From a virus, in the IMG/VR virus record IMGVR_UViG_3300010300_000001: a stretch of DNA of 44,459 nucleotides. The stretch is one strand, 5' to 3'. The position numbers were made by a program, and so were the translations under genes. Positions within the stretch are counted from its first letter, which is position 1. Every line of letters begins with the position of its first letter. The notes beneath the pieces were generated by a model. That model saw nothing but the letters and a program-made list of their open reading frames with translations. It did no database searches and had not been told where the DNA came from. Below, piece by piece: positions 7,955-37,164 of this stretch.

Positions 7955-8713
7955 ATGAGCTACCACGCACGCGGACTTACGGCGTCCAATGCCATTGAGC
8001 ACGCTAGGTACACCGTCTTCGGTGCCGGCGCAGAATTTCCCGCGCATATCAGCCCCATTGGCCTGGTCAACGAGGCCGGCGAGTGGCTGGTGTCGGCGCA
8101 CCAGTGGGCATGGACGACCAGCCGGATAATGACGCTCGGCACTACGGCGGGCCAAGATCGCGTGCCGCTGCCGGATGACTACGGCGGCGACCTGGCTGAG
8201 CAGCAGTCAAACAGTCTCGTTGCTCGACTGCGACTGACCGACGTTGCCACGATCATTGACATGAAGGCGCACGATCCTGCCACCTCGCAGTTGATCACGT
8301 ACGCCGCAGTCAACTACTGGATCCCCCCGGAAGGTGGGGAGCCTGTTCCGCAGCTGCTGCTGCACCCCACCCCAACAGTCACAACCGAGGACGCGTTTAC
8401 GCTCGTCTACACGGCCAGGTGGCAGTACCTGCACGACCCGTCTGACCTGCTGGTCATGCCGGGGTACTGCGTGACGCTGTTCCTCGAGGTGCTGGTCGCC
8501 ATTGCGCGCGGGCGCATGGAAGAGGATCAGGGGTCCGTAGCTACGCGCCTACAAGGGCTGATGATGTCCGACCTGATGAGCGCGGCCAAGCACGCGGACC
8601 GACGGACTCAAAGCGACATGGGCCGCATGCGCCACACGCATACGTCGCTAGGCATTCCGCCGGTGCTGACGACCTTCCCGTATAACTGGACATACGCTAA
8701 CGGACCTTCCTGA
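7955..8713 (+). CDS. Head-tail adaptor/connector candidate
   Basis: 252-aa ORF between the head genes and the large tail protein. Call is by position only. Confidence 0.35.
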   Translation: MSYHARGLTASNAIEHARYTVFGAGAEFPAHISPIGLVNEAGEWLVSAHQWAWTTSRIMTLGTTAGQDRVPLPDDYGGDLAEQQSNSLVARLRLTDVATIIDMKAHDPATSQLITYAAVNYWIPPEGGEPVPQLLLHPTPTVTTEDAFTLVYTARWQYLHDPSDLLVMPGYCVTLFLEVLVAIARGRMEEDQGSVATRLQGLMMSDLMSAAKHADRRTQSDMGRMRHTHTSLGIPPVLTTFPYNWTYANGPS

Positions 8714-11700
8714 TGGCACAGGCTGAGTTCCCCAAAAGGGGCCTGAACGACGACACGCCGTTTGGCGAGCAGCCGGCAATGACGACTCGGGATGCGCTCA
8801 ACGTGCGCACCATTGATCCGAGTACGGGCCGCAGCCGAGGAGCTCAGCGATCAGGAACCACCAAGTTCTTGCAGGGGGCCCTCAACGGGGCGCAGCCGGT
8901 GCAGGCCCTGGCGCAGACGATGCGCCCAAGAAACCAGTTTACGCTGACGAACCTGGGGTCCAACAACCTGACGACGACTACGGCCGCTTCGGGGTCCGTG
9001 GAAATTACAGGCACCATCACGATCCGCACGGCCATTCCGGGCTTCACGGTCGGCGACCGCGTGACAATCAGTGATGGCACCACCGCAATCACGTTTGAGG
9101 CCAGCTTTCAGGATGACAACGCCAGCGATAGTTCGTACGTGGCGTGGGAGGCCAACCCAAACAACGCGCCGCTGACGATGGCGCGGTTCGCGCAGAAGAT
9201 CAACGAGCAGTCCTTCAGCATTGGCGCAGCGGTGGACTCGACCAACTCGTCCAAGGTCCTGCTGCAAAACACCGACGCCGGCAGTGGCGCGCTGGGCAAC
9301 GTGGCTATTGTGGTCCAGGAGGATCTGGTAACGACCGACTGGGCCGCTACCGGCATGTCTGGTGGCACGGGCGGTGGCGACGACAACACCATCGAAGTGG
9401 AGTGGCAGCGCCGTCCAGCTGACGCAACTGAGACGAGCTGGATTGAGCTCGATGGCAACAACGTGTGGACCATCACGGACCGCGGTGTGGCTGAGCTCTA
9501 CAACCCGGACGGCGTGCTGGTCAACAGCATCGCACCGCGCATCCCTGAGGGGTTTACCATCGTCAACCGCGTGGCCGTGGCCAGTGACAGCTCGGTCTAT
9601 CTGGCGTGCAAGTCTGACGATGGCAAGGAAAGCCGGGTGTGGCGGTTCTACGCCCAGACGGACGTGTACGACGAGAAGTGGGAGTACGAGCTCCCCGGCA
9701 CGGTGCGGCAGCTACAGGCCGCATTCGGCGCTCTGTATGTGGTGTCCGACTGCGCGGACATTGATGGGTCCGAGTACGAGAACACGCCGCCCGGGATCTT
9801 TGTTGGCCTAACGGGCCTGAGCCTTAGCACGCCGCTAGAGGCGTTCCGTAACGAGTGTCCTATGCCCGTCACTAGCATGGACATTTCCAACCAGGGCCTT
9901 GTGGCGATGGCGCACCCGGCTGCGTCCAAGCGCGGTTTTCGGTCAGCGTCAGTCGAAACCCCGGCATCTAGCGCCCCTGACCTGTGGACGCCTTGGGATC
10001 TGACCAACTACCGCGAGCGACTGTACTTTTGGTGTCGCGCAGAGGATGCGGTGGATGAAAACGGCAGTCTGATTACAGACATTGGCGATCGCGTTGGCGC
10101 TGTGCCTGAGCATCGCCTGTCCCCCCCGGATGGCTATGAGCTGCCGTATGACGACACAGATCGTCGCCTGGTGGCGTCTTCTGACCGCCTAGCGCCTAGC
10201 TGGCGAACGGAAAACGGGGGCCGGCCGTATCTAGCGTTCAGCGCAAATACAGCTGAAGGCACCTCGCCGTCGGCCTTGGCCGGCACCGTGCTTGTTTCCA
10301 ACGGTGACAACTCTGTAGGCAATAAAGGCGCAGACCCGGAAAGCAAGCTGCCTAACCAGCAACGGCCGATCCCTAGTGATGACTCACTGTCATGGGTGAC
10401 TAGCTTCCTGTTGCGGTTGCCGTCAAACACGACTGACCAACAGGTGTTTTTGAGCTTCGAGCAGGGCATTAGCGGTGGCCCGGACTTCGGAATCATTATC
10501 AATACAGAAGGCGGTCTGTACGCTAGTACGCTGGTCGATGGCGAAAATTCAATTTGGGTGGATGTAGACCCTAGGCAGCTTGTAGCCGACGACATCAACA
10601 ACTCTGGTGACGCAACGTCTACGAAGATCGTTCGGTACTCCGACGAGCCAGGCCGCAGTGGATCAGCTCGCATGGCGCTAGTGACGCTAGTGTGGCATAG
10701 GGATCTGGCGCAAGACAGGTGCGTTGTCAGAGTCAACGGGCGTCACGTCGATACGTTTCGTGGCGTGGATAGGTGGGGGGGGTCAAATGGCAACTTTAGC
10801 ATCGGTTGCCGTCGAGCCGCCGCAGATGGCGTTCCCGCCGACGACGTGTACGAAAACAGCAGCGTAGAGCAGTGGAACAGCTTTACAGGGCGGCTTTATG
10901 AGTGGGTCACGGTTCTGGGGGACAGCAACAACGGCGTCACCGCCAACCTAGACGAGATTCCGTGCCCCCGCCCTGACGCAGCCAGCGGGCGCGGCGCAAT
11001 TGGTGGGCTGGACATTGGCTATGCAGACAGTGGCTCCGTGCCGCATCACGATGGCCGAGACAATCCAACCTCTGCCACAGAAGTCGAGCTCCTTGAGGGC
11101 TACCTGGCGCACAAGTACGGCGTAGCGTACATTCTCCCGCGCAGCTCGAGCTCTGGGGATCCCAGGTCCAGCTTCGGCTACTACGAGGCACACCCGTTTG
11201 GCGGGCCCGGCTGGTTGCCTGAGGGGCCGAACGCCACAAGCAAAAGCGCGTTCTACAGGCGCCAATGGACCAACGGAATGACGTTCTGGTCTGCCGGCGG
11301 CAACCTCATCGGCGGCTTGACCGGGGCGGGGATGTCTAGCGGTGTCGGGTGGGATGGCGAGGCAAGGCTGGTGTCTGGTGGCAAAGCCCAGGCCAAGCGC
11401 GGAGAGAGCCTCGACAACGAAACCTCAACGGCCTATCGGCGCACAGTCTTCTTTGGCAGCCGCGCAGTCACAGGCAAGTGCGCTACGGCCACGATTGACA
11501 TTTCTGCCAGCGTTAGCGTGGGGGCGACACTGACGCTGACTGACAACAGCAGCATCGTTACGTTCGAGTTCACCAATACTGCGCCGACGCCAGGCAACGT
11601 GCGGGTTGATACGTCGGTGACGGCTACCAGCCAGGACACCAAGCAGCGCCTCATTGCGCTAGAGTTCTTGGACCGCCTAGATGAGTCTGCACTGGACATC

Positions 11701-13518
11701 GTCGGCTTCATGCACGGCGAGCAGAACGATGGCTCAGACGAGCACTCTGTCCAGTTGATTCAGGAGCAGATAGGTGTGGTCCGCGAGCTCAACATCGCCG
11801 TGACTGGCACGGGCCTTACTGCGCCGACGGCTTTCTCGGGAGCGGAGGACACGCCGGATGGCGGTTGGCTGGCTCGGGTGCCTGACGATCTTGATCGGTT
11901 GTCGGTAGACCCCGCCGTCGGCACCAAGATCCGGTTTGACTCTGCCAACAACATCTACCTGCCAGATACGACGCTCACTAGCGTCAACAGCATCGTGCGC
12001 CGCAGCAAGGACACTGGTTCTGTGCAATGGCGCTACTTGTTCCTGGGCAGCGAAACGGCCAACGCCGTCATTCCGCTTGGAGACCCGTTGTCGTACGCAG
12101 GCGCCAGCCTTGACGGGCCGGAGTTCGTGTTTGCTGCCAGCCGCAACGGGCCCATTGAGAACGACACTCTGTGGAAGCTGCGCATCCTGCGCGTTGACGA
12201 GGACCTGACCGGCCAGTTGTCTACACGCGAAGCTATCTACTTAGGTGTTTGCGGTGGCAGCGTGGTCAAGTTCGAGCGTAACGGAACGGCACAGGCCGTG
12301 ACCGGCGGGGACAACTTGTTTAGCGCCGGCACGCCGTACATCCAGACTGCGGTTGTGCAGCAGAAGGTGTTCTTCACGGACGGCATTTCTGCGCACTACT
12401 ACGACGTGGAGGAGGATGCGGTCAAGCCGTACATCAGTGAGTCGCGTGGGGCCCCGCCCGTGCGATTCCGTCTGCTGGCAAGCTGGCGCAACCGCCTGGT
12501 TGCTGCGCGGGTGGCTGGCGACGAGACCAACTGGTACATGAGCCGGTCGGGCGATCCGTTCGACTGGGACGAGAACCCGCCCATTGTCGATGCTCAGCAG
12601 CCGGTGTCTGGCGATACCAGCAAGGGCCGGGTGGGCCAGGCCCCCGACGTTATCAATGCCCTGGTGCCCTGGTCAGACGACCTGCTGATCATTGGTGGCG
12701 ACCGCAGTATCTGGCGTATGACGGGAGACCCGATGCAGGGTGGCCAGGTGGACCTGGTGTCAGACTCCACCGGCATGGCCTTTGGCTCGCCGTGGACCAA
12801 AGACCCCAACGGGACCCTGTACTTCTTTGGCTCTCGAGGCGGTGTGTGGCGTATGCCGCCCGGTGGCCTGCCTGAGCGCATCACCACGTACAGCATCGAG
12901 AGGCGGCTGCGAGACCTAGACCTCGGATCGTTCCGGGTGTCGATGGTGTGGAACTACTACGACGAGGGGCTGCACGTCATTCCGGTGCCGTACAACCTGA
13001 GCTCGGTGGACGAGGTGCGCAGCTGGTTCTACGACGCAAAGCACGACGCCTGGTGGGAAGATTCTTGGATGAGCTCCGGCAACGGCGTTACCGCCGTGCT
13101 GCTGGTTGATGGCGACCTGCCCGATGACCGCCGCGTGCTCATGGGCTGCCAGGACGGGATTGTGCGCTACGTGGACCCGGCCGCCGTAACCGACGACGAG
13201 TTCCCCATCGACAGCCAGGTCCTGATTGGGCCACTGATGGGCCCGTCTGCGGAGCATGAGTCTCGATTTACCCGCATGACTGGCGTGCTGGGCGCGACGC
13301 TGGGTCCTGTTTCCTACGAGGTGCTGGTAGGCGAGGACTACGAAACCGCTGAGGTGGTGGATGTCGGGTACTGGAACCCGGGACGCAACCCTATCTCGCC
13401 GGTGCGGTGGACTGGGCCGGCGGCATGGATTCGCCTTGCCTCTGCTGAAGCCAACGCGTGGGCGCTAGAATCGCTGCACGTGGACGTGATTCCGACAACC
13501 AGAAAGAGGACGCGATGA
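8713..13518 (+). CDS. Large tail protein (1601 aa) with a LamG/concanavalin-like middle region and a nozzle/beta-propeller-like C-terminal region
   Basis: TGATG overlap with the upstream gene. The middle segment ...LVTLVWHRDLAQDRCVVRVNGRHVDTFRG...FSIGCR resembles laminin-G-type lectin folds. The C-terminal third has repeated W/G/D-rich strands (WYMSRSGDPFDWD, LLIIGGDRSIWRMTGDP). Confidence 0.45.
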   Translation: MAQAEFPKRGLNDDTPFGEQPAMTTRDALNVRTIDPSTGRSRGAQRSGTTKFLQGALNGAQPVQALAQTMRPRNQFTLTNLGSNNLTTTTAASGSVEITGTITIRTAIPGFTVGDRVTISDGTTAITFEASFQDDNASDSSYVAWEANPNNAPLTMARFAQKINEQSFSIGAAVDSTNSSKVLLQNTDAGSGALGNVAIVVQEDLVTTDWAATGMSGGTGGGDDNTIEVEWQRRPADATETSWIELDGNNVWTITDRGVAELYNPDGVLVNSIAPRIPEGFTIVNRVAVASDSSVYLACKSDDGKESRVWRFYAQTDVYDEKWEYELPGTVRQLQAAFGALYVVSDCADIDGSEYENTPPGIFVGLTGLSLSTPLEAFRNECPMPVTSMDISNQGLVAMAHPAASKRGFRSASVETPASSAPDLWTPWDLTNYRERLYFWCRAEDAVDENGSLITDIGDRVGAVPEHRLSPPDGYELPYDDTDRRLVASSDRLAPSWRTENGGRPYLAFSANTAEGTSPSALAGTVLVSNGDNSVGNKGADPESKLPNQQRPIPSDDSLSWVTSFLLRLPSNTTDQQVFLSFEQGISGGPDFGIIINTEGGLYASTLVDGENSIWVDVDPRQLVADDINNSGDATSTKIVRYSDEPGRSGSARMALVTLVWHRDLAQDRCVVRVNGRHVDTFRGVDRWGGSNGNFSIGCRRAAADGVPADDVYENSSVEQWNSFTGRLYEWVTVLGDSNNGVTANLDEIPCPRPDAASGRGAIGGLDIGYADSGSVPHHDGRDNPTSATEVELLEGYLAHKYGVAYILPRSSSSGDPRSSFGYYEAHPFGGPGWLPEGPNATSKSAFYRRQWTNGMTFWSAGGNLIGGLTGAGMSSGVGWDGEARLVSGGKAQAKRGESLDNETSTAYRRTVFFGSRAVTGKCATATIDISASVSVGATLTLTDNSSIVTFEFTNTAPTPGNVRVDTSVTATSQDTKQRLIALEFLDRLDESALDIVGFMHGEQNDGSDEHSVQLIQEQIGVVRELNIAVTGTGLTAPTAFSGAEDTPDGGWLARVPDDLDRLSVDPAVGTKIRFDSANNIYLPDTTLTSVNSIVRRSKDTGSVQWRYLFLGSETANAVIPLGDPLSYAGASLDGPEFVFAASRNGPIENDTLWKLRILRVDEDLTGQLSTREAIYLGVCGGSVVKFERNGTAQAVTGGDNLFSAGTPYIQTAVVQQKVFFTDGISAHYYDVEEDAVKPYISESRGAPPVRFRLLASWRNRLVAARVAGDETNWYMSRSGDPFDWDENPPIVDAQQPVSGDTSKGRVGQAPDVINALVPWSDDLLIIGGDRSIWRMTGDPMQGGQVDLVSDSTGMAFGSPWTKDPNGTLYFFGSRGGVWRMPPGGLPERITTYSIERRLRDLDLGSFRVSMVWNYYDEGLHVIPVPYNLSSVDEVRSWFYDAKHDAWWEDSWMSSGNGVTAVLLVDGDLPDDRRVLMGCQDGIVRYVDPAAVTDDEFPIDSQVLIGPLMGPSAEHESRFTRMTGVLGATLGPVSYEVLVGEDYETAEVVDVGYWNPGRNPISPVRWTGPAAWIRLASAEANAWALESLHVDVIPTTRKRTR

Positions 13519-13779: not shown

Positions 13780-14607
13780 ATGGTGTTGGGATCATTGTTT
13801 GGGAAAGACGGTCTAGACCTCTTCGGCCAAGGCGCGCAAGAAAAGGCCAACAAGGCCAATTTGCAGCAGCTCAAGAACATCCTCAATGAATTGGGGTATG
13901 GTCCCGACGCAGACCCATATTCGGCCTATGCCCAAACTACGGCCCTGTACGGTGATGCCGCTCAGGGACTGAAGAATCTGACTGGTAGCGCGTTCAGAAC
14001 AATTGGCAGGGGCCGTAGTGTTGGCCAGGCCACGTTCAAGGAGTCCATCGCGGCGCTCGAAGCCGGGTTTGCTCAAGGGCAGCAGGGCCTGCAAGACTCG
14101 ATTGCCGCCACCATTGAAAGCCAAGTTGCCATGCAGAAGCAGGCCATGGCCGCAGCGGCGCAGCAGGGTATGGGTAGTGGCCTACGCGGCACGCCGCAGG
14201 GTGCGCAGATGCGGGGTCTAATCGCCGACGCTACGCGCTCGAGCTCGCAGGCATTTGCTGACCTAGCCAGCCAGAGGGGCGCGTTGGGCGCGCAACAAGG
14301 CCAGATGATGGGCCAGGCGTACCAGCAGTTTGGCCAGGACCAGATGGCCAGTTACGCGCAGCAGGCACAGTTGCAGCAGAACCTTGGCACGCAACTAGCG
14401 CAGCTATACAGCAACCAAGCACAGGCTTACACGGACATAGCCGCCTTGCGTGCAGATGCTCGGAGCGGCTATCAGCACAAAGCTGGCCCGTCGCCTCTTA
14501 GTCAGATCGGACAGCTGGCCGGCGGCATTGGCGCTATGGCTATAGGGTTCGGGGGGCTCGGGGGAGCAGGAGCCGCGGGAGCAGCAGCCGGGGCAGCAGG
14601 AGCGTAG
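13780..14607 (+). CDS. Gln/Ala-rich internal virion protein candidate with a Gly/Ala hydrophobic C-terminus
   Basis: AGGAGG 6-7 nt upstream of the ATG. The C-terminus GGIGAMAIGFGGLGGAGAAGAAAGAAGA is glycine-zipper-like. Confidence 0.4.
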   Translation: MVLGSLFGKDGLDLFGQGAQEKANKANLQQLKNILNELGYGPDADPYSAYAQTTALYGDAAQGLKNLTGSAFRTIGRGRSVGQATFKESIAALEAGFAQGQQGLQDSIAATIESQVAMQKQAMAAAAQQGMGSGLRGTPQGAQMRGLIADATRSSSQAFADLASQRGALGAQQGQMMGQAYQQFGQDQMASYAQQAQLQQNLGTQLAQLYSNQAQAYTDIAALRADARSGYQHKAGPSPLSQIGQLAGGIGAMAIGFGGLGGAGAAGAAAGAAGA

Positions 14608-15700: not shown

Positions 15701-18700
15701 ATGGCGACAGTCCAAGAGCCTCAGGACTTTACTGCGTTTGCTGACCGCTACTGGCAGGTCAGGGGCAGTGGCGGCCCTATTGGTGATGAGCAACTTCGTC
15801 CGCTGCTGGACGAGTTTGGCTTGCCGTACTGGTCTGGCATGGAGGCGGCGCTAGACGAGGGCGTCGGCAGGACCAAAGACTTTCGGACTGTTGTTGAAGA
15901 ATCGGAGCTGGCTGATTACCTGCCGTTCTTCGCTGGGGCGGCTCAGGTTGACGAGCTTCTTCAGATCAGAAGCGCAGCGAATGCGGTAGCCGAGGGCACC
16001 GCTACGCAAGAGCAGGAAGATGTGGTTATCCGCTACATGGTGGATATGGCCACGCCTGGCACGTGGGGCGGCCAAGTTGCTTCGCTGCTGGTTGACATGC
16101 CTGCATTCATGGGTGAGTTTGCAGCTAGTGGCGGCGTTGCATCTTTGCTGAAAACGGGCGGCAAGAAGGTTGCGGGTAAGCTGCTTCGAGAGACCATTGA
16201 CCAAGCGGCGCAAAAGCAGGCGGCCGGTGGCGTGATGAAATCGCTGGCCAAGCGGGGCGTCAACGTCGGTACTCACTTTGGCGTTCAGATGGGGCTTGGT
16301 GGAGTCGGCGGGCAGCGCATCATGGCCAGCACGCTACAGCGCACGCTGGGCCAGGCGGGCATGGTTTTGGATGAGAACCAAGCTGGCGAGCTCGAGGTGC
16401 TGATGAGCAGCACTCTGCCGCAGATCGAGGAGTCGCTCGACATTGGTATCACCGACTACGCCATTGAGGTGGCGTCCGAGATGAGCGGCGGCGCTATTGG
16501 CAAGGTCGTGCCTATCGACAAGCTGACCGGCATGGTGCTGCGAGGCATCCAGGCGCGTGCATTTGCCAAGGGAGCTCAAAAGTACGGCGTGGACAAGGCC
16601 ATGAACTTCCTGGCCAAGTCTGGGTGGAACGGCCCAATGAACGAGGTCTTGGAGGAGGTAGCCGGCAACGCAATGCGTGCAGCTGCCCCGAACCTCGAAG
16701 AGACTGCCGATGACATCATCCCGTCGTGGGAAGAGTTCACGGCAATGTACGTCGGCTTTGCGGTTCCGGGTCTGGCCGGCGGTGCTCTTGGGTTAGGGAG
16801 TGACTCAATGACCAGCGGGCCCGGCAAGCTGCCTAAGGGCGCAGCCCGATTTGAAACCGCCGAAGAGGCTGAGCAGGCCGGCCAGCGCATGGGCCTTGTC
16901 GAGCCTGTCGCATCGGAGTCGGCCGATGGCTTTGGCCTGCGGCGATACGCAGACGGACCCCTGGTAAGCGAGCAGGAGGTAAGTGCGCGCGTTCCGGCCC
17001 GGGCCCCGGCCCCCGACGCTGACGTGGACGCTGACGCTGAGCCAGGAACTGTAGATGCCGAGGTTGTAGATACTAAGGCGCCGCCCGCGGAAGAGCTCTC
17101 GGAGGAGGACGAAGACTTCCTGCTACAGCCGGAATACGAAGATTCGGATGTTCTGTACCAGCAGCTTGATGCTGGCGCGGAGGGTGAGTATCGCCGGGAG
17201 CGCGCGGCCGTGGTCTTTGATGAAGCTGAGCGGTACGCATCGGCCTCGGGGGAGCGCGCATACGTTGTCACGGACCCAAGCAACAGGGCTCTAAACTACG
17301 CGAGTCGCCAGGAGGCAATCGACCTGGTGCAGTCTGGCCAGGGCAAAGTCCTGGCCGTGCTCGAGCCTAGCCGCGAAGCTGAGCCTGCGCGCACAATCCT
17401 TCGCGACGCCCAGCAGGTGTGGGGGGCTAACGCGACCATTGTTGAGCCGAATCTGGAGCGCGAAGACGTGCGCGCAGCGCAAGAGCTGGCTAAGCGCGCC
17501 GGCGTGCGGTTTGTGATGGTTGATCCCGGCGAGGGCGCTGAAGACGCTCCGCTGGGCGCCTCGGCTCGCGTTGGGACAATTATGGTGAACGCGCGCAACA
17601 AGCCGCCGGCCGACGAGATTGCCGCGCATGAGCTTGTGCATGAACTGCGCCGCAGCAACCCGGAGCTCTTTGACCAGCTTGTCGATGTCCTTCAGCGCAC
17701 CGCCGGGGAGCGCATCGAAGAGGCGCGCGGCAGCCGGGATATGTCGGACGAAGAAGCGATAGCTCGGTACGCGGAGCCGCTCGCCAAGCTGATGCGCCGA
17801 ATGGGGACGCCACAGGGCCGTAAGCTGCTAAGGGACATTGCCCTTGAGCAACCGAGGCTGTTTGACAAGATTATTGACACTGTCCGCCGCATCCTGGCCA
17901 AGATCGGCCTTGTGCAGTCTCCGGTTATGGAGCGCAAGCGGCTGCGCATGCAGGAGCAGCTGGCCGATCTGGGCGAGCGCGTCACGCAGGAAGATGTGCG
18001 CGCCGCGCGATTGCTGCACGACTCGCTGACCTTTATTGGCAAAGCGCGCCTAGCCGGTTTGCTGACGGGCGACGAGCAGGGCGAGGTGAAGCTGCGCGAG
18101 GCTTACCTGGAGGAAGATCCTGACCGCGCCTTACGCTATCGCGACGACGACATGCTGGGGCAGAGCTGGGCGGAAGACAAAGAGCGCAAGCTGATTCTTG
18201 CGGACGGCACCGAGATCCCGTTTCGCTACAGAGTCGTCAATGCCAGCGACCTGCTGCCTAGCCATGACGCACGCAGAGGGTTTAGGCAGAACCCGGGCGG
18301 TGATAAAAACGAGCGCACGTATCACATTGAGAGCCAGTCAAAGGCGTCGCGCAAGAACGTCAGGGATATTGCCAGCGACCCGCAGCCGGAACGCATCTTC
18401 AATACCGCGCCAGACCCCAACACCGGGCCGCCTATCGTGACCCTAGATGGGGTTGTGCTGGGCGGCAATGCGCGCACCATGGGCTTGCAGCTGCTGTACC
18501 ACAATGCGTGGGAAAAGCAGGAGAACGTGGACGCCGCTGAACGCGTGGCACAAGCGGCGGTTCAGTTTGCCGCACGCGAGATGGGCGAAGAGGCCGAAGC
18601 TGTGGCTATTGAGCTGGAGCAACCCGTCATTGTTAGAGAGCTCCAGATCGCCACCATCCCCGGCGCGCTGTCGCGCGAACTAAACAAGGATGCCGCGGCG

Positions 18701-21700
18701 CCGCGCACACCGTCTGTGGACGCCGTGTCTCGCGGCTCTAAGGTGTCGGAGCAGGCCGCGCAGATGATCGCCCAAACCATTGGCGAGGGCACTCTGGGCG
18801 ATGTCCTAAACAGTCGCTCCAAAACCGCGTCGATGCTTAGCGCGCTGGTCAAGTCCGGCGCCTTCGACGAGGCTGAAATTGAGTCACTCATGGAGGGCCA
18901 GAGTGGCCTGCTGACTAAGGCCGGCCGCGAGCTGGTTGAAAAAACCATCATTGGCTCGCTTGTCACGGACGTGCAACGTCTGTCGGCTTTGCCTGCAAGT
19001 GCGCGAGGCAAGATGATTCGGTCGCTGCCGTCGCTGATGCGCCTGTCGGCAAGCTGGCCGCAGTTCAAGCATCACCTGGCGGCCATGTTCGATGGGCTGG
19101 CCACGATGCGCGGGGCCGACACTAATCTGGCAACGGAGGTTGACCAGACTAGCCTAGAGGACGAGCCGTGGAAGCGCGACATGGTGGCCGTCGCGCTGCT
19201 AAGCGAATTCATGGGCCGGGGGCCCAAGTCCTGGAACGAATTTGCCAAGGACCTGGTGACGGCCGTTACCGAGGCCAACATGCAGCAGGGCGCCATGTTT
19301 GGCGAGCCTGTGGCGGCTGATCCGGTAGAGGCGCTGTTGAAGCTGGTTGGCGATACACCGATGGGGCGCCGGCTTGCGCAGGCCAGCAACTTTGACCCGA
19401 CCGTTCAAATGCAAGAGGCCGAGGCGGCCCCGGAGGCGGCCCCGGAGGCGGAGGCCGAGGTTGACGCGCCTGCCGCCGAAGAGCCTGCTGCCGAAGAGTC
19501 CGTTGCCGCCGAACTGCCGCAGGTGCCGGCCAGAAAGCGGCGCTACTCGCCTGCCACTGAGCAAATGGCCGACGCGCTCAGGCAGCTCGCGCTGGAGCCG
19601 GAGTTGGTTGCCGGCAGGTCGTTTGGCCGCCTTGAAGATGCAGACATTGCATTCCTGGCTCGCCAGGCGGCTGCGGCCGTGGCTGAAGAGTGGGGCACGT
19701 CTGAGTTTGTGGAGTTCGCTACAGAGCTTGCCACAAAGCATTCTCAGATCGACTTCAACACGGCCATAGCTTTTATCCATGGCGTTGACGCCCTGGCCCG
19801 CTCTGCGGGATCGCAACTGCCTGGCTTTGATGTAAGCGGCACCATTGAGGCCATGCTGAGCTCGGTGGCTGTGGGGCGCGAGCGCTCTGAGCTCGAGACC
19901 GCTGGCCTGGTGGGCAACTACGTCAGGACCACGCTGCAAGCGGAAATGGAGTCCCGTCTCGGGGGCGAGCAGGAAGCCGATGCCGAGGCCCGCGAAGCGC
20001 CGGACCTTGCTTGGTTTGATGCTTCGCGCAAGAGCCCAGCGTTCTCGCAGCTAGGCGAGCTTGCGGACGAGCAAGATGGCGTTCGCAAAGGCGACGTGGT
20101 GGTGGTGCTTGACGGCACCCGCATGCGCATTGATCGGGCAAGCACGGTCAACCGTGACCGGGACGTTATGCGCTACGATAGCGGCGAAGGCCGCATCGAA
20201 GGCACGGAAGGCTCGTTTAGCCCTGGGAGCAAGCGGCCTGTGCGCCGCAACATGCAGCAGCCCGTGCTAGTTATTCCCAAGCGCTTTGTGGACAACGACG
20301 CGTACCTTGCGCTGTCTACAGGCGACAAGCGGCCGGCTGTAGATACAAGCAGCCAGGAGGCGTACGAGCGCAGCGTGGACGACGCGATGAACTTCATTGC
20401 AAACAACTTGCTGCGCGAACCGTCCAAGGCTCACCGCAAGGCCGACCGGGAAACTCTACTCAATCTGCGCAACGAGCTCGCTGGCCAGCAGGCCGCAGCC
20501 CCTGAGGCGGCTAAGCCGGCGGCAGACGCAAGCTACGAGCAGATTGAGCGCGAGTACCTGCAAAGCATTCGTGATGCGCTGGGCGTCGATGAGCAGCAGG
20601 CGGCCGTGCTGTCTTACCTAATGGATTCAATGGGCCTCGACCGCAGCACCATTGACTTTATGCGAGGCAGCACGCCAGACCCCCGCTTGCTCAACCAGCG
20701 AGTGTGGCATGGCTCAAGCGCGGCGTTTAGCAGGTTCGACACCGGGTTTATTGGCACCGGCGAAGGCGAGCAAGCCTATGGGTGGGGCCTGTATTTTGCG
20801 TCGCGCAAATCGGTTGCGGAATGGTATCGCGTACAGATTGCGGGTCGCGGAAAGGTAGATCAGCCGCACCTGCTTTTGCAGCAGCGCACCAGGAGCGACG
20901 AGCCTGGCGCAGTTGTTTATAACTATGAAGAGCTTCGCTTCCTCGGCCAGCGCATTCAGGACGCGTGGCGGGAGTGGTTCAGAGCCGCCAGCCAGTCGGA
21001 GACGGGCCCCCCTAGCGCAATGGAGCAGATGGATTGGCTCAACCGCGCGTTGAAGTCAATGCTTGCCGATGCGGAGGCTGAGCTTGCGCGGCAGCGAGCC
21101 GGCGGCCCGAACACGTCGCCAGTGCTTTTGCGCGCAGCCGAGAGAATCGCTGGCAGAATGCGCGATGTCGTCAACGGCACTAATGACGTTGGGTTTGAGG
21201 TGACGCTGGCTGGTCATAGAGGGCAACTGTACGAGGTCGAGCTCCATCCGGCCGAGAGCCAGTATTTGCTCTGGGAGGCAAACGCCTCAGGCCGTTTCTA
21301 TCTCGGTGGTGGAAAACAGAGTCGCCGGGTGCAGACCGCGCTTCAGCCGATTGTCGAGCTTGTGTTTACAAGCCAGGGGCGTCGCGTGCCACGCTACCTT
21401 AGTGGAGAAGAGTTGTACAAGGAGCTGGTCTCCTACTTTGAGCAGAGGCCGCTGCCCAAAGGCCAGTCTGCGCAAATGGCAGCGTCGCTCAAGCTACTTG
21501 AATCGGGTGTGCGCGGCATCAAATACGTAGACGGGGTAAGCCGGAAGAAAGTGGGCCCGCTCCACTACAACTACGTAGTTTTCGACGCGGCAGACACGCG
21601 AATGACGCGTTTCTTCCAGCAGGGCAACGAAGTGCAGGGGCAGGTTGAGTTGGCCCAGGATGGCCGCGCAATCATCACTGGCTTCGAATCTGCCAACTTC

Positions 21701-24700
21701 AGTACCGGCGTCCATGAGATTGCGCACGTAGCTCGCCGCCGCCTGGTCAACCGCGAGGTGCCAGCCAGCGAGCGCGAAGGCATTACGTCGCAGGACATCC
21801 TAGAGGCCGAAACGTGGTGCGGCGTCGAGGACGGCAACTGGACTGAAGAGGCCGAGGAAAGGTTTGCCCGCGGCTTCGAGAAGTACCTGATTGACGGCAA
21901 GGCGCCGAACGCGCAGCTGCACGCGATGTTCCGCGTCATTGCCCAGTGGATGCGTCGGCTGTACGAGCATGTGCTGACCCGCACGGCCGGCACGCCGTAC
22001 GAGGTCAAGCTGACCCCCGAAATGACTCGCGTGTATGACGCTCTGGTGACGCGGGGCCAGTACACCGGCCCAGAACAGGAGGGCGAGGTTCATGGCCCTG
22101 TCAAGGAGGTCGATGGAGTCAGGCCAGTTCGGTGGGTTGGAGGCAACGTGGATGTGGCGTACAACCGCCGCTACGACATTGTTCACCGCACGTGGAACAA
22201 GGACCCGCAGAAACGTAACACGATCATCTACGTGTTCGACGTTGACCCGTCGCGCAACTACTCGCCGGCCGACGTGTATCGAATCGCCTACACCAGCGGC
22301 ATGATCCCCAAGGGCGGTGGCAGCACAGGCGCCGAGGAGATTCAGACCCCGCACGGATTTTATGTCCGCCGGCAAAAAACCAACCGTGGGCTCAAGAACG
22401 ATTGGGTGCTGAATCCTGAGTTCCAAGAGGAAGATGCGGCGACTGAGGCTGCCGCGCCGGACGCCGAGGGCCTGGCCGGAAGCGAGGCAGACCCCCAGCC
22501 TGATGGCGGGCAGGATCTGAGTCGGTGGTTTGAGCGGCGAAGAAAGCAGCAGATTGATTTTCTGCGGCCGTTCATCGACGCCGTGGTTGAAGACTTCATC
22601 GGCACCTTGCCCGAAAAGTCTCGCGCCAGTGCCCGACAAGCGCTTAGCGGCACAACTTTCAGCAGCGACTTGGCCGTGGGTGATCGCGTTGTGGCTGCTG
22701 CGGCCTTTCGTGGCTACCAGTACGTAGACACGTACCCGGATGGGCCCGCCGATGCCCCGGCGCTTTACAGGGACGGGATGGTTGTTGCCGACCGCAACAA
22801 CTACACCGCGACGGGCATGAAGCTATTCGCCTACATTGCCAGGCAGCGCACCCGCGAGCTCGAGGAGGCCATTGCGGGCGCCCCTAGCTTCTGGCGCGAA
22901 GGGGCAATCGAGGTCGCGCAGCCGGGGTACAGGGTGGTTGGTCTAGTTGACCAAAAGACGCATGAGCTCCAGCAAGACGGAAGCTGGCTGGAGATTGACC
23001 CAGACGCTGAGTCCTACACGGGCCTAGAGCTTCCTGCGCGCCCTGAGGGCCTGCCTGACTGGCACCCGCCGCTAAACGAGCACGACGCGTTTGGCGATAT
23101 GACCCGGCCCGCTGAGCCTGAAATGATCGGGCCGGTGATGCCGGAGGATGAACGCCGGGCTCTGGAAGCTGCGCAAATCCTGATTGAGCGCGAGCGCCGC
23201 AAGCGCCGTAAGCTGCCGCCGGGCGAGCAGTCAAACCTCTTCGGCCCTGGCGAACCCGTTGACCTCGACCCGCCTAGCGATTCTGGCGGCGATCGTGGCT
23301 TGCAGCCGCCGGCTTCGTTTGAGGGCGGGCCCCGGCCCGGACCGGAGGACGTGGAGGGCGTGCGCCGCTCGTTTGCTTTGGGCGCGCAGCCCAGGGTCAA
23401 GCGCGCAAACGTCAGTGGCGACCCGAACGTGCGCAACTACGTGCGCGCCAGCGACGTGCAGATGGGCCGCAAAGGCGAGTACATGGCCAGCATCAAGCAG
23501 GCCGAAAAAGACGCGACTCGCATGCTCGAGGAGATGGGGGAAGAAGCCTTTGTTGAAAACTTCCTGACCAGGGCCCGCGAGGGAGTGCTGCACGATCAGG
23601 TGGAGTTCCTTGCAGCCCGACGCATTAGCGCCAACCTGATCAGAGATGCCCTGGGCATGGGGGGCACAGACAGGCATGCGCGTGCCATTGAGTTCATGTG
23701 GGCGTACCGTGCCGCGAGGGGCCAGGTGGCTCGTTCGCTTGGCATGGTGCGCGACGTGTTCCCTCGTACCGCACGCGAGCAGCTGGCCGATGTCTTGGCC
23801 ATGCCTAGCCAGCGAGTGCGCCGCCGGTTCCTGAACCTGGAAAAGAAGCGCCGCGAGCTGCGAGAGAAGGAGCGCGCACAGGCCAGCGAAGCCAGTCGCA
23901 AGCGCCTGCGAAAGGAGCTCGAGCGCATTGAGCGCCAGATCGACGCAGAGCTGAAGCGCGAGTCTGAGCGCATGCAGAAAGCGCTGGAGAAGCTGCAAGA
24001 AGATGGGTTGAACCCCGAGACCGTGATTGAATCCGACCTTATGGATCCCAACACGCGCGGCCGTATCGCCAAGGCTATTGCTGAGGCCAGGTCGAACAAG
24101 TGGGATTGGTTCTTGGCATACCAGTACAATGCAATGCTGTCGTTTGCCGGAACGCACGCGCGCAACATTGCCGGCAACACGCTAAACACTCTCCAAGAGC
24201 AGTTTGTGCAGCGTGGGGTTGAGGCGGGCATTGCCCGCGCCCTGCGGCTGTTTGCTCCTGGGAACTTTGAGGCGGCGCCGAAGTTTGGCGAGTTCAAGGT
24301 AATGGCCCAGATGCTGCCGGAGGCGTTTATGCAAGGCGCCCTGAACGGGTGGCTGGGCTACAAAAACAACGTCAGCGCCACGGCCCTGTACTTCCAAGCC
24401 ATGGGCATCGAGGTGCAGGACATGAGCCGTATCGAGCAGGACATTGCGCGGCAGGTGGGCAGCGGAAAGCTGCTGTACCTTGACTACCTGGGCACCCGCC
24501 TGCTGCAAGGCATGGATGACTGGGCCAAGACGTTCGTGGCTATCATCGAGATGCACGCCCGCTCGTATCGCGAGGCAGTCAACATGGGGCTCAAGAATCC
24601 CAAGGACATTGAGAAGCAAATGCGCATCTTCATGCTCGACGTGCAGCACCCGCTGCATCAAGAGGCGTGGACTGCGGCGCTCAAAACTGCGTTCCAGTTG

Positions 24701-26032
24701 CCGCCGGGCGAGTTCACTACCGGCTTGCTGAACCTGCGCAACAAGGCTGACTCAGCGTGGGATGTCCCGATGGGCACTCTCATGTTCCCGTTCGTGAACA
24801 CGCCGACCCAAATCTTCCAAGCGGGCCTGCGCAAAATCCCGCCGTCCAAGCTGATTCAGATGGCTGTGCGAGCCGTGCGCACCGTCAAGGCTGCCCGAGC
24901 CGATGAAGGCGCCGAAGATGTCGCCAAGGGGCGCACCGTGTACACGGGCGCGGAAGGCCAGCGGCAGTTGGTTGAGGATCTGGCCGATTTGGTGATTGGT
25001 GTCGGCGTGTTCTGGACCGTCATTGCCCTACTTGCTGGAGACGACGACGACCCGCGCCCGAAGATTACTGGTTCGCTGAAGCCGTGGGGGTCAGAGCGGG
25101 AGCTCCAGTACCGCGCTGCGCCGGCAATGTCGGTGCGCTTTGGGGACAGTTACTACTCGTATGCCGGGCTCGAGCCCCTTGCCACGTATGCGGCGCCGGT
25201 CGTTGACGCAGCAGAGCGCTGGCTGGGTGCTGTAAATGGCGGAACTAAGGAGCAGATCCTTGCTGCCAACACTAACGTGCTCAACTCCATCGTCGGTCTG
25301 GTTCGAGACAAGACCTACCTCCAGGGCTTTGGCGAGCTGGTGGACTTGGTGCAGTCTGGAGGCAAGTCACAATCGCTTGCAGATTTCATGTCCGACACGT
25401 TCTTCACGCGAATGGTGCCCAACGTCATTCGCGGAACGGCCAGAGAGTCGGACGAGTACCTGCGCCTAAGCCGCACCGCAGAAAAGTCGCTGCTGGGCCG
25501 CACGCTCAACGTAGACAAGCTGTTGCCTGTGCCTCCGCGAGTTGCGCGCTACCTGGGCATTGACCCTGCGCCGCCCAAGCGGGATATCTGGGGCCGCCCC
25601 ATTCCTCGAGGCGTGCAGATTGACTGGTCGTTTGGCGGGCTTGCCGGCCACCTGATGAAGGAGGCCGTGGGCCCCAAGAAGATGAACCCGGTGATGAAGG
25701 CCGACCTGGCCATCATGGCCTGGAACAGTATGGTGGAGCGCGGAGAGGCGATTGATCCCCGGACAGGGGACGTTGCAGAGCCGCTAAAGTTTGCTGGTAA
25801 GCGCGTCGGGCAGAACTGGTCGTCCGAAGAGGTTGACTTCGTAATGCGCGAAGGCGGCGGGCGGGCTCAGCGCGCTATCCAGGGGCTTGTTATTCGAGAC
25901 GTATCCAATCCCACGTGGTACGAAATGCAGGCGATTCGGAAGATACTGGATAAATCGTATGACGCTGCCATGAAGCAGGTGCGCGCGCAGCGCCGTGTGC
26001 GCAAGGCCCAGGAGCTCTCAACCACCAGGTAG
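15701..26032 (+). CDS. Giant multidomain (polyvalent-type) protein, 3443 aa, probably virion-borne
   Basis: Single uninterrupted ORF of 10,332 nt with a GGAAGGA Shine-Dalgarno. Motifs: HELVH (nt 17627-17641); ParB-like PPIVTLDGVVLGGNARTMGL (nt about 18431-18487); WHGS...GWGLYFAS...LHYNYVVFD (nt 20705-21595); HEIAH (nt 21713-21727) followed by EERFARGFEKYLIDGKAP; basic coiled coil (nt about 23828-24010); transmembrane-like LVIGVGVFWTVIALLAG (nt about 24983-25039). Confidence 0.85.
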   Translation: MATVQEPQDFTAFADRYWQVRGSGGPIGDEQLRPLLDEFGLPYWSGMEAALDEGVGRTKDFRTVVEESELADYLPFFAGAAQVDELLQIRSAANAVAEGTATQEQEDVVIRYMVDMATPGTWGGQVASLLVDMPAFMGEFAASGGVASLLKTGGKKVAGKLLRETIDQAAQKQAAGGVMKSLAKRGVNVGTHFGVQMGLGGVGGQRIMASTLQRTLGQAGMVLDENQAGELEVLMSSTLPQIEESLDIGITDYAIEVASEMSGGAIGKVVPIDKLTGMVLRGIQARAFAKGAQKYGVDKAMNFLAKSGWNGPMNEVLEEVAGNAMRAAAPNLEETADDIIPSWEEFTAMYVGFAVPGLAGGALGLGSDSMTSGPGKLPKGAARFETAEEAEQAGQRMGLVEPVASESADGFGLRRYADGPLVSEQEVSARVPARAPAPDADVDADAEPGTVDAEVVDTKAPPAEELSEEDEDFLLQPEYEDSDVLYQQLDAGAEGEYRRERAAVVFDEAERYASASGERAYVVTDPSNRALNYASRQEAIDLVQSGQGKVLAVLEPSREAEPARTILRDAQQVWGANATIVEPNLEREDVRAAQELAKRAGVRFVMVDPGEGAEDAPLGASARVGTIMVNARNKPPADEIAAHELVHELRRSNPELFDQLVDVLQRTAGERIEEARGSRDMSDEEAIARYAEPLAKLMRRMGTPQGRKLLRDIALEQPRLFDKIIDTVRRILAKIGLVQSPVMERKRLRMQEQLADLGERVTQEDVRAARLLHDSLTFIGKARLAGLLTGDEQGEVKLREAYLEEDPDRALRYRDDDMLGQSWAEDKERKLILADGTEIPFRYRVVNASDLLPSHDARRGFRQNPGGDKNERTYHIESQSKASRKNVRDIASDPQPERIFNTAPDPNTGPPIVTLDGVVLGGNARTMGLQLLYHNAWEKQENVDAAERVAQAAVQFAAREMGEEAEAVAIELEQPVIVRELQIATIPGALSRELNKDAAAPRTPSVDAVSRGSKVSEQAAQMIAQTIGEGTLGDVLNSRSKTASMLSALVKSGAFDEAEIESLMEGQSGLLTKAGRELVEKTIIGSLVTDVQRLSALPASARGKMIRSLPSLMRLSASWPQFKHHLAAMFDGLATMRGADTNLATEVDQTSLEDEPWKRDMVAVALLSEFMGRGPKSWNEFAKDLVTAVTEANMQQGAMFGEPVAADPVEALLKLVGDTPMGRRLAQASNFDPTVQMQEAEAAPEAAPEAEAEVDAPAAEEPAAEESVAAELPQVPARKRRYSPATEQMADALRQLALEPELVAGRSFGRLEDADIAFLARQAAAAVAEEWGTSEFVEFATELATKHSQIDFNTAIAFIHGVDALARSAGSQLPGFDVSGTIEAMLSSVAVGRERSELETAGLVGNYVRTTLQAEMESRLGGEQEADAEAREAPDLAWFDASRKSPAFSQLGELADEQDGVRKGDVVVVLDGTRMRIDRASTVNRDRDVMRYDSGEGRIEGTEGSFSPGSKRPVRRNMQQPVLVIPKRFVDNDAYLALSTGDKRPAVDTSSQEAYERSVDDAMNFIANNLLREPSKAHRKADRETLLNLRNELAGQQAAAPEAAKPAADASYEQIEREYLQSIRDALGVDEQQAAVLSYLMDSMGLDRSTIDFMRGSTPDPRLLNQRVWHGSSAAFSRFDTGFIGTGEGEQAYGWGLYFASRKSVAEWYRVQIAGRGKVDQPHLLLQQRTRSDEPGAVVYNYEELRFLGQRIQDAWREWFRAASQSETGPPSAMEQMDWLNRALKSMLADAEAELARQRAGGPNTSPVLLRAAERIAGRMRDVVNGTNDVGFEVTLAGHRGQLYEVELHPAESQYLLWEANASGRFYLGGGKQSRRVQTALQPIVELVFTSQGRRVPRYLSGEELYKELVSYFEQRPLPKGQSAQMAASLKLLESGVRGIKYVDGVSRKKVGPLHYNYVVFDAADTRMTRFFQQGNEVQGQVELAQDGRAIITGFESANFSTGVHEIAHVARRRLVNREVPASEREGITSQDILEAETWCGVEDGNWTEEAEERFARGFEKYLIDGKAPNAQLHAMFRVIAQWMRRLYEHVLTRTAGTPYEVKLTPEMTRVYDALVTRGQYTGPEQEGEVHGPVKEVDGVRPVRWVGGNVDVAYNRRYDIVHRTWNKDPQKRNTIIYVFDVDPSRNYSPADVYRIAYTSGMIPKGGGSTGAEEIQTPHGFYVRRQKTNRGLKNDWVLNPEFQEEDAATEAAAPDAEGLAGSEADPQPDGGQDLSRWFERRRKQQIDFLRPFIDAVVEDFIGTLPEKSRASARQALSGTTFSSDLAVGDRVVAAAAFRGYQYVDTYPDGPADAPALYRDGMVVADRNNYTATGMKLFAYIARQRTRELEEAIAGAPSFWREGAIEVAQPGYRVVGLVDQKTHELQQDGSWLEIDPDAESYTGLELPARPEGLPDWHPPLNEHDAFGDMTRPAEPEMIGPVMPEDERRALEAAQILIERERRKRRKLPPGEQSNLFGPGEPVDLDPPSDSGGDRGLQPPASFEGGPRPGPEDVEGVRRSFALGAQPRVKRANVSGDPNVRNYVRASDVQMGRKGEYMASIKQAEKDATRMLEEMGEEAFVENFLTRAREGVLHDQVEFLAARRISANLIRDALGMGGTDRHARAIEFMWAYRAARGQVARSLGMVRDVFPRTAREQLADVLAMPSQRVRRRFLNLEKKRRELREKERAQASEASRKRLRKELERIERQIDAELKRESERMQKALEKLQEDGLNPETVIESDLMDPNTRGRIAKAIAEARSNKWDWFLAYQYNAMLSFAGTHARNIAGNTLNTLQEQFVQRGVEAGIARALRLFAPGNFEAAPKFGEFKVMAQMLPEAFMQGALNGWLGYKNNVSATALYFQAMGIEVQDMSRIEQDIARQVGSGKLLYLDYLGTRLLQGMDDWAKTFVAIIEMHARSYREAVNMGLKNPKDIEKQMRIFMLDVQHPLHQEAWTAALKTAFQLPPGEFTTGLLNLRNKADSAWDVPMGTLMFPFVNTPTQIFQAGLRKIPPSKLIQMAVRAVRTVKAARADEGAEDVAKGRTVYTGAEGQRQLVEDLADLVIGVGVFWTVIALLAGDDDDPRPKITGSLKPWGSERELQYRAAPAMSVRFGDSYYSYAGLEPLATYAAPVVDAAERWLGAVNGGTKEQILAANTNVLNSIVGLVRDKTYLQGFGELVDLVQSGGKSQSLADFMSDTFFTRMVPNVIRGTARESDEYLRLSRTAEKSLLGRTLNVDKLLPVPPRVARYLGIDPAPPKRDIWGRPIPRGVQIDWSFGGLAGHLMKEAVGPKKMNPVMKADLAIMAWNSMVERGEAIDPRTGDVAEPLKFAGKRVGQNWSSEEVDFVMREGGGRAQRAIQGLVIRDVSNPTWYEMQAIRKILDKSYDAAMKQVRAQRRVRKAQELSTTR

Positions 26033-35700: not shown

Positions 35701-35715
35701 GTTTCGTCATCCGTT

Positions 35716-35770
35716 GGGGTTTCGGCCTTGCCTGGGCCTCGTCAGGGGAGCGCAGCACGCTCTCGACCCC
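35716..35770 (-). ncRNA. Hammerhead ribozyme motif, type III topology (copy A)
   Basis: Minus-strand RNA: GGGGUC / GAGAGCG-UGCUG-CGCUCCC (stem I, one A-C mismatch) / CUGACGA / GGCC-CAGGCAA-GGCC (stem II) / GAA / ACCCC (stem III, pairing with GGGGU). Every invariant core position is present, and the cleavage triplet is GUC. Confidence 0.8.
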
Positions 35771-35778
35771 TTGCGGGG

Positions 35779-36030
35779 TCAGGTGTCCGGGTACTTGTTC
35801 AGGCGGACGGCCTCCGCCGGCCTCGTTACCGTTTTGGCCAGGCGCGGCGCGTCCACGCTGGCGAGCTCACTATCCACGAACGGCACCAAGTGTATATCCG
35901 CCGCCGCGGCCTGTAGCGCCTCTGCCAGCGCGCCCGCTCCGGCCACGTTCAGGTAGAACGTGGGCAGGTTTGGCACGCTCACAGCTACCGCATCCCGGAA
36001 CCGGTGCACGCGCCAGGCCCTAAAACCCAT
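35779..36030 (-). CDS. Hypothetical early protein (83 aa)
   Basis: The ATG at 36030 overlaps the upstream stop by 11 nt. GC3-rich frame. Its UGA stop lies inside the 5' arm of the GCAA hairpin of hammerhead copy A. The longer track ORF 35779..36243 overlaps the neighbouring gene and is unlikely. Confidence 0.5.
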   Translation of the reverse strand: MGFRAWRVHRFRDAVAVSVPNLPTFYLNVAGAGALAEALQAAAADIHLVPFVDSELASVDAPRLAKTVTRPAEAVRLNKYPDT

Positions 36031-36806: not shown

Positions 36807-36843
36807 CAAGGGTCATCCTCTCGGCCTGGTAGTGTTCTGACGT

Positions 36844-36895
36844 GGCGTTTCGGCCGTCTCGGCCTCGTCAGCGGGGCAGACCAGCCCCGGACGCC
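36844..36895 (-). ncRNA. Hammerhead ribozyme motif, type III topology (copy B)
   Basis: Minus-strand RNA: GGCGUC / CGGGGC-UGGUCU-GCCCCG (stem I) / CUGACGA / GGCCG-AGA-CGGCC (stem II) / GAA / ACGCC (stem III, pairing with GGCGU). It closely parallels the classic CUGAUGA-GGCC-GAAA-GGCC-GAA-AC minimal hammerhead. Confidence 0.85.
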
Positions 36896-36903
36896 TTGCG
36901 GCG

Positions 36904-37164
36904 TCACGGCTCCGCCTCCGCCTCCGCCGCCCGGTCCAGCCGCTCCTCTCGAGCTCGTATGTCTTCGGCAATCTGGCGAGCTAGGCCGCGGGCCAGCTTA
37001 TCGGCGAGCTCGCGCAGCCTGGCAGCAGCCTCGGGGGTGCAGTCGGGAGAGCTGGCGACCTCGCTTACGTGGCGGAGCTCGCACGGCCGGCAGAGCTGAC
37101 TCGGGCTATCGTAGTCGGCCAAGCTGGCGCCGCAGCTGCCGCAAACACTTTCGGGGTTGTTCAT
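36904..37164 (-). CDS. Small zinc-ribbon protein (86 aa)
   Basis: The ATG at 37164 forms an ATGA overlap with the upstream stop. CGSC...CRPC motif and an acidic helical tail. Its UGA stop lies inside the 5' arm of the GCAA hairpin of hammerhead copy B. Confidence 0.6.
   Translation of the reverse strand: MNNPESVCGSCGASLADYDSPSQLCRPCELRHVSEVASSPDCTPEAAARLRELADKLARGLARQIAEDIRAREERLDRAAEAEAEP

Follow-up and report, generated by a model that had tools for sequence, protein, structure and literature searches.

The spacer between the genes gp6 and gp7 of this phage raises the question of whether its minus-strand transcript is a self-cleaving RNA and, if so, what such an RNA would do in the middle of a polycistronic message. 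The window, as we call the whole stretch of DNA analysed, is the 44.5-kb genome (62% GC) of a tailed phage. A large terminase is encoded, portal and major-head proteins give weaker matches, an exonuclease gene lies on the minus strand, and the called genes of contigs identical to it bear RusA and RecT Pfam tags. Comparison of the window DNA with GenBank phages returned no match, and a scan of bacterial genomes with its terminase returned no relatives. The structural module on the plus strand holds two very large ORFs, 15701-26032 and 8713-13518 (3443 aa and 1601 aa), the 1601-aa product having no PHROG match; a sub-threshold match to flpD RNA in the structural gene region (14301-14347, plus strand; 26.4 bits for a cutoff of 40, E 0.057) is probably due to chance.

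The genes around the spacer form a minus-strand operon in which most neighbours overlap or abut. As far as gp7 there are two spacers only, each carrying a hammerhead-like motif on the coding strand, here termed copy B (upstream) and copy A (between gp6 and gp7):

37567-37328, minus strand: gp1, operon gene
between gp1 and gp3, minus strand: gp2, operon gene
37164-36904, minus strand: gp3, with its UGA stop codon at 36906-36904
36806-36390, minus strand: gp4, operon gene
36397-36020, minus strand: gp5, operon gene
36030-35779, minus strand: gp6, an 83-aa ORF taken from the ORF list and from gene calls on identical contigs
35700-35032, minus strand: gp7, a 222-aa ORF with its ATG at 35700, which would be the first gene on a 3' cleavage product
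after gp7, minus strand: gp8, operon gene

Scans of gp1-gp8 against PHROGs and Pfam returned nothing except QSregVF_b for gp8, and a sigma-70 promoter scan of the operon found zero sites. In the comparison with the L001 phage gp6 shows third-codon-position bias. Unchanged, gp7 recurs on 18 contigs, and 24 contigs of a sister phage with the same gene order have a homolog 80% identical to it; one scan of viral contigs with gp7 gave no relatives. Contigs with distant gp7 homologs (L139-L144) contain neither a hammerhead nor any other Rfam ribozyme, and the ribozyme is thus not tied to the gp7 gene. On one of these (L140) no repeated motif was found in the regular spacers of about 100 nt, and another (L139) has a sub-threshold tRNA-like match of the mascRNA/menRNA family (5205-5255, plus strand; 27.9 bits) in an intergenic spacer.

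The sequence-only reading had counted just two spacers within 37567-35032 and a third one further downstream (35031-34917) devoid of a hammerhead. Both counts hold, the two descriptor sites reported below falling in exactly those two spacers and a covariance-model search finding no hammerhead in the third. On the minus strand the third spacer instead folds into an extended hairpin rich in GC (-60.8 kcal/mol, z = -2.3), after which comes a U-rich stretch. Between window and sister phage this spacer is 95% conserved, and it could be either a terminator or a duplex-type processing site ending the gp1-gp7 unit.

The minus-strand letters of 35780-35716 quoted in the earlier reading are identical to the sequence, and copy A and its surroundings can be laid out as follows:

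35780-35765, minus strand: hairpin GACCCC-GCAA-GGGGUC, taken up in the minimum free energy (MFE) fold (-11.2 kcal/mol); competitor of stem III before cleavage and candidate 3'-terminal hairpin after it
35770-35716, minus (coding) strand: hammerhead copy A, type III, identified by sequence, full-length RF00008 match, descriptor and model R2
35770-35766, minus strand: 5' strand of stem III, GGGGU, from the sequence
35765, minus strand: C17, from the sequence
35764-35746, minus strand: stem I, GAGAGCG-UGCUG-CGCUCCC with loop UGCUG, from the sequence
35745-35739, minus strand: core segment CUGACGA, from the sequence
35738-35724, minus strand: stem II, GGCC-CAGGCAA-GGCC, 4 bp with loop CAGGCAA, from the sequence
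35723-35721, minus strand: GAA, from the sequence
35720-35716, minus strand: 3' strand of stem III, ACCCC, giving a stem of 5 bp, from the sequence
35701-35715, minus strand: linker AACGGAUGACGAAAC between copy A and the gp7 start, with the likely Shine-Dalgarno region (GGA) inside it

All the elements of the catalytic core, C3-U4-G5-A6-N7-G8-A9 and G12-A13-A14, are present in copy A. The N-U-H cleavage triplet is GUC (35767-35765), its U35766 pairing with A35720 (A15.1-U16.1), and the predicted cut lies between C35765 and G35764. The core-adjacent pairs are canonical (G-C at 1.1-2.1 and at 10.1-11.1), and loops close stems I and II but not stem III, as in the type III topology; the triplet and core assignment of the earlier reading is borne out by the sequence, by the R2 score and by these pairs, and its description of stem II (GGCC/GGCC with a 7-nt loop) and stem III (ACCCC/GGGGU) agrees with the sequence. 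Copy A also passes the hammerhead rejection rules quoted from PMC3088659. Stem I had been given seven pairs plus an A-C mismatch: the mismatch is indeed at 1.2-2.2, but only six pairs are canonical, and a seventh requires admitting a U-G pair that closes a loop of 3 nt. Among 28 aligned type III examples this A-C mismatch is unique, the sister phage having C-C at the same place. At physiological Mg2+ hammerhead activity requires a tertiary contact between loops I and II. In copy A these loops could form three Watson-Crick pairs (CUG/CAG), and over the family loop I-loop II complementarity is weakly above expectation (2.41 vs 2.18 with loops permuted, p=0.04).

A motif of this length could in principle arise by chance, and several searches bear on this point. 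A strict type III descriptor, made of the core, a G-C pair at 10.1-11.1, a paired 1.1-2.1, A15.1-U16.1 and minimum stem lengths, matched twice in the 44.5-kb window with both strands scanned; the matches are copies A and B, both on the coding strand and in the only two spacers of the operon stretch, and 400 dinucleotide shuffles of the window gave 0 matches. Model R2, a covariance model trained on 25 type III hammerheads from unrelated viral contigs, the window phage family being excluded, scored copy A at 49.5 bits (E~1e-13) and copy B at 60.3 bits, the next match in the window reaching 11.5 bits; exhaustive covariance-model searches of the window returned copies A and B alone. Rfam at gathering thresholds gave no match anywhere in the window. 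In a permissive RF00008 search of the operon both copies appeared as full-length matches, copy A (positions 1-54 of 54) with 30.1 bits and copy B with 38.9 bits for a cutoff of 48.5, which is a threshold set by the database, not a property of the biochemistry. RF00008 also gives values under 48.5, namely 41-44 bits, to four of the unrelated phage hammerheads of type III used for R2, copy A being the lowest scorer; the curated model seems to under-call type III members from phages in general. A permissive Rfam search of the whole window recovered copy A and lost copy B (36842-36897), a match of 38.9 bits in the 3-kb search; filter settings vary with the searched length, so that sub-threshold ribozymes can escape in long queries. 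Taken together, the sequence data make it likely that copy A is a functional type III self-cleaving hammerhead in the polycistronic minus-strand mRNA, and that the 5' fragment would be capped by a hairpin after cleavage.

Copy B provides a natural comparison within the same operon, in which the two copies bracket the gp4-gp6 block of about 1.1 kb:

36844-36895, minus strand: hammerhead copy B, type III, identified by RF00008, R2 and the descriptor, with C17 at 36890
36890-36905, minus strand: competitor hairpin of copy B, GACGCC-GCAA-GGCGUC, overlapping the gp3 UGA in the same register as in copy A

The core was said to be identical in the two copies, and the catalytic-core nucleotides are intact in both. 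Stems and loops were said to differ; this applies to stems I and III but not to stem II, which is identical. Stem III differs by one compensated pair, and the stem I changes are compensated too. One difference in the strand shared by hairpin and stem III is compensated twice, in the hairpin arm and in the 3' strand of stem III. A metagenomic hammerhead on the minus strand of contig L432 (C17 at index 406 of the reverse complement) combines the stem I of copy B, with a loop I one base off, and the stem III and hairpin arm of copy A (GACCCC/GGGGUC/ACCCC), the three sequences thus making a natural three-way compensated comparison. The core of copy B (CUGACG, 36871-36866) is also complementary to CGUCAG just downstream (36842-36837), and this pairing is used in the MFE fold of the spacer (36807-36903), where it could act as a second inhibitory alternative structure.

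The spacers are conserved between the two phage lineages well beyond the genes around them. Spacer A differs from that of the sister phage at 1 of 78 nt and spacer B at 1 of 97 nt, while the flanking genes are 74-87% identical at the nucleotide level, with the differences concentrated at third codon positions; Fisher p values for spacers versus flanking genes range from 1e-3 to 5e-6 for A and from 1e-3 to 2e-8 over both spacers. That the motif is a selected RNA fold, as the earlier reading had it, finds support in the contrast between spacer A (99%) and its neighbouring genes (81-87%) and in the compensated A/B changes in stems I and III. The sole change in copy A is an A to C at position 1.2, which is mismatched in either phage and is therefore uninformative on pairing; the orthologue comparison contains no compensatory change inside copy A itself. 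The sole change in copy B turns the loop of the upstream hairpin from GCAA to GCCA. The linker 35701-35715 has no change between the two lineages, and the 36 nt from the copy B ribozyme to the gp4 start codon are likewise all invariant.

Related elements are widespread in viral DNA. A metagenome scan with the exact copy A signature gave no relatives; viral-contig scans with the core joined to three different stem II sequences hit at least 120 contigs each, many with 2-5 copies. In stems I and III of 28 viral type III hammerheads every variable pair covaries (score 0.785 vs 0.149 shuffled); this set was picked with a pairing-based descriptor, so that the percentage of paired positions would be circular. 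Some contigs are denser than the window with its two copies, two of them having arrays of five hammerhead cores in 1.3-1.9 kb (L438, 3648-4936; L069, 6104-8000). Another (L025, minus strand, 87-793 and 1433-1485) has three type II matches and one type III within about 1.4 kb; the type II matches score 48.7, 34.6 and 32.7 bits, only the first exceeding the cutoff, and this mixed-type array resembles the kind in Perreault et al. (PMC3088659).

Such clusters have been known for some time. Perreault et al. (2011) described multiple prophage hammerheads flanking single genes or short blocks of varying gene identity, and demonstrated cleavage in vitro for three prophage arrays and in vivo for one (PMC3088659). 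Like the window, these arrays have several coding-strand hammerheads with a canonical core in intergenic spacers of a polycistronic phage unit, and flank small, non-conserved ORFs of no known function; the role proposed for them is the processing of long phage transcripts into shorter mRNAs. The arrays tested are other sequences, from Agrobacterium tumefaciens, Azorhizobium caulinodans and Clostridium scindens. A 2017 review still listed the function of phage-genome hammerheads as an open question (PMC6155905). Copy A is therefore one more example of the clustered phage hammerheads documented since 2011 and not a new class, and its novelty is modest. It has the core and the type III topology in common with the members of RF00008 (Hammerhead_3: viroids, satellites and eukaryotic repeats), but it resides in a DNA phage operon and not in a rolling-circle RNA replicon. 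A stop-codon-overlapping hairpin in competition with stem III finds no mention in either PMC3088659 or PMC6155905.

This hairpin (35780-35765), whose letters the earlier reading quoted without comment, is a 16-nt element of 6 bp with a GNRA cap that ends precisely at the cleavage site. Its 3' arm consists of the stem III 5' strand plus C17, so that hairpin and stem III are mutually exclusive, and its first two bases (35780-35779) are the last two of the gp6 UGA stop codon (35781-35779), which lies 16 nt upstream of C17. The MFE fold takes the hairpin, whose predicted stability exceeds that of the hammerhead fold by about 5-6 kcal/mol in either copy. In native context the ensemble cost of the hammerhead fold is 6.0 (copy A) and 7.0 (copy B) kcal/mol, for a median of 1.16 kcal/mol over 90 phage type III examples, which places both copies in the top 6-7%; these are nearest-neighbour energies that ignore tertiary contacts, and on such energies the active fold of copy A could be rare. 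An intrinsic (Rho-independent) terminator at this place was also considered and rejected: the hairpin is followed by GAGAGCG and not by a U-tract, and a terminator scan lists nothing there.

Is an upstream hairpin a regular companion of phage type III hammerheads? We took a census of the 30 nt ending at C17 in 90 non-redundant examples. Their median MFE is -11.65 kcal/mol, compared with -3.7 for random windows and, in hammerhead-free gaps, with -2.5 just after stop codons and -7.3 kcal/mol for the best window anywhere. A value of -8 kcal/mol or better was reached by 69% of the 90, and by 14% of the random controls, 7% of those after stops and 42% of the best gap windows. The hairpin abuts stem III in 52/90 and overlaps it in 9/90. 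For overlapping hairpins a strict definition of tightness (five contiguous Watson-Crick pairs, loop of 3-6 nt) replaced an upstream-shuffle null and a loose MFE criterion, whose chance rates of 20-60% were uninformative; by this strict definition fully overlapping hairpins are not enriched in the broad set (2 observed vs 0.5 expected).

The overlapping arrangement is concentrated in a subfamily defined by the GGGGUC strand. It counts 8 unique metagenomic members of type III; an overlapping hairpin with a tight 5-bp stem occurs in 4 of them, and one of at least 4 bp in 6, with a chance per site of 0.4-2.9% and P~2e-6, the members being possibly related by descent and thus not fully independent samples. 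The competitor helix was tabulated sequence by sequence, as loop lengths differ and a MAFFT alignment is unsuitable. The hairpin recurs with different loops in L058, L410, L432, L470, L471 and L476; the subfamily loops (GCAA, GCCA, CUCG, UCC, CUCC, UUCG, CUC, UCG) and stem I vary as well, and 10/11 sequences retain the G:C17 pair, of which the active fold makes no use. In members with an ORF the in-frame upstream stop is found between -14 and -22 relative to C17 (exactly at -16 in the window family, L470 and L476) and the next start between +65 and +71.

The topology of the ribozyme suggests a reason for such a hairpin. Cleavage of a type I or II hammerhead leaves a 5' product that ends in the closed stem III hairpin; cleavage of type III leaves a single-stranded tail. 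On the best-supported reading, phage type III sites regain a structured 3' end through their additional hairpin, which in the window phage mimics a closed stem III (A-CCCC-loop-GGGG-U-C). Following this reading, copy A would be transcribed between gp6 and gp7 in the polycistronic mRNA, and formation of stem III (GGGGU/ACCCC) would let the core cleave after C35765. The 5' fragment, with gp6, would end in C with a 2',3'-cyclic phosphate and would refold into GACCCC-GCAA-GGGGUC, a 3'-terminal hairpin expected to stop religation and to hinder 3' exonucleases. The 3' fragment would start with a 5'-OH and carry the stem I and II hairpins, the ribosome-binding site and gp7. Copies A and B would thereby divide the operon transcript into segments with separable stabilities, with no host RNase required. 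Before cleavage the same hairpin competes with stem III, and cleavage of copy A is therefore probably slow or conditional rather than immediate. As to how type III units might acquire an upstream hairpin, in one contig (L316, 4215-4300, plus strand) a degenerate second core directly follows a type I hammerhead that is intact and whose stem III is closed (CACCC-UUCG-GGGUG), and there the descriptor can assign the same GUC site to a type III unit; decay of a tandem unit of this sort could leave a closed-stem-III hairpin upstream of a type III hammerhead.

Parts of this scheme have precedents. In the early mRNA of phage T7, RNase III cuts between cistrons leave a stabilising stem-loop at the 3' end of the upstream message. 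The T7 case is like the present operon in being cut between cistrons and in leaving a stem-loop on the 3' end of the upstream fragment; it differs in using a host protein nuclease on a long duplex, whereas the copy A RNA would cut itself and the stem III strand would refold into the hairpin. Viroid hammerhead strands can adopt a mutually exclusive inactive pairing that serves the rolling-circle cycle of cleavage and ligation, and RiboJ is a synthetic ribozyme insulator placed just upstream of a ribosome-binding site, which gives the downstream message a defined 5' end. Copy A resembles the former in its exclusive inactive pairing and the latter in placing a ribozyme ahead of a ribosome-binding site, but neither viroid switches nor the engineered RiboJ are known to have a stop-codon-overlapping hairpin in an operon. 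Activation of gp7 translation by cleavage was discarded, the predicted accessibility of the ribosome-binding site being 0.68 both before and after the cut.

The overlap of hairpin and stop codon allows another reading, in which the hairpin keeps the ribozyme off and the ribosome terminating on gp6 frees GGGGUC for pairing with ACCCC or, in a variant, competition alone makes a slow timer. With a ribosome halted at the gp6 UGA, the 5' arm and loop would be covered and most of GGGGUC would remain free, so that translation-coupled activation is geometrically possible; it would also fit the unusually large stability advantage of the competitor in both copies (5-6 kcal/mol, top 6-7% of 90), the position of the stop, between -14 and -22 relative to C17 wherever a subfamily member has an ORF, and the retention in 10/11 of a G:C17 pair that is idle in the active fold. 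The register of the stop varies over that same range, however, and the GACCCC arm is conserved with or without stop overlap, so that the overlap may be simple compaction; an intramolecular hairpin should moreover re-form fast once the ribosome has gone, and the predominance of abutting (52/90) over overlapping (9/90) hairpins fits a 3'-end cap better than a gate. We consider this translation-gated reading unlikely, though it is the strongest of the alternatives. If true, it would make copy A a natural translation-gated ribozyme switch that couples the processing of a phage operon mRNA to its translation.

It may also be asked whether copy A cleaves at all, the spacer being perhaps conserved for an mRNA-stabilising hairpin, a protein-binding site or a recombination linker between gene modules, with the hammerhead an inactive relic. 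This would account for a spacer that is invariant as a whole, beyond the ribozyme, and agrees with the thermodynamically disfavoured active fold, the stem I mismatch unique in the aligned set and the low Rfam score of copy A. Decay should nevertheless bring changes in the core, and neither copy has lost any catalytic-core nucleotide or any of the three core-adjacent pairs in either phage lineage; the same architecture, with an intact core and a different stem I, is found in at least 6 other contigs. Hence we hold a relic to be improbable.

Least probable of all, and very unlikely, is that the 1.1-kb gp4-gp6 RNA is released and its ends ligated, by a reverse hammerhead reaction or an RtcB-type ligase, into circular or spliced products: two same-strand hammerheads do bracket a discrete block and their 5'-OH and cyclic-phosphate ends have a chemistry that suits RtcB, but the chimeric stem III (GGGGU of A with ACGCC of B) has a central G-G mismatch, as has the reverse combination, self-pairing is predicted for each 5' product, and Perreault et al., who raised the possibility of spliced or circular products, searched for them and found none (PMC3088659), the mismatch and this null result together making circularisation or splicing of gp4-gp6 unlikely. 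A viroid-like or retrozyme pair yielding circular RNA was rejected on the same G-G mismatch and because the block is 1.1 kb of coding sequence.

For phage hammerheads as a family, both copies in the window are missed by RF00008 at its curated cutoff, as are four other phage examples. The regularity with which phage type III sites have a tail hairpin suggests capping of the upstream mRNA at its 3' end as the function under selection, possibly together with conditional cleavage, and it turns the open functional question on phage hammerheads into specific experiments.
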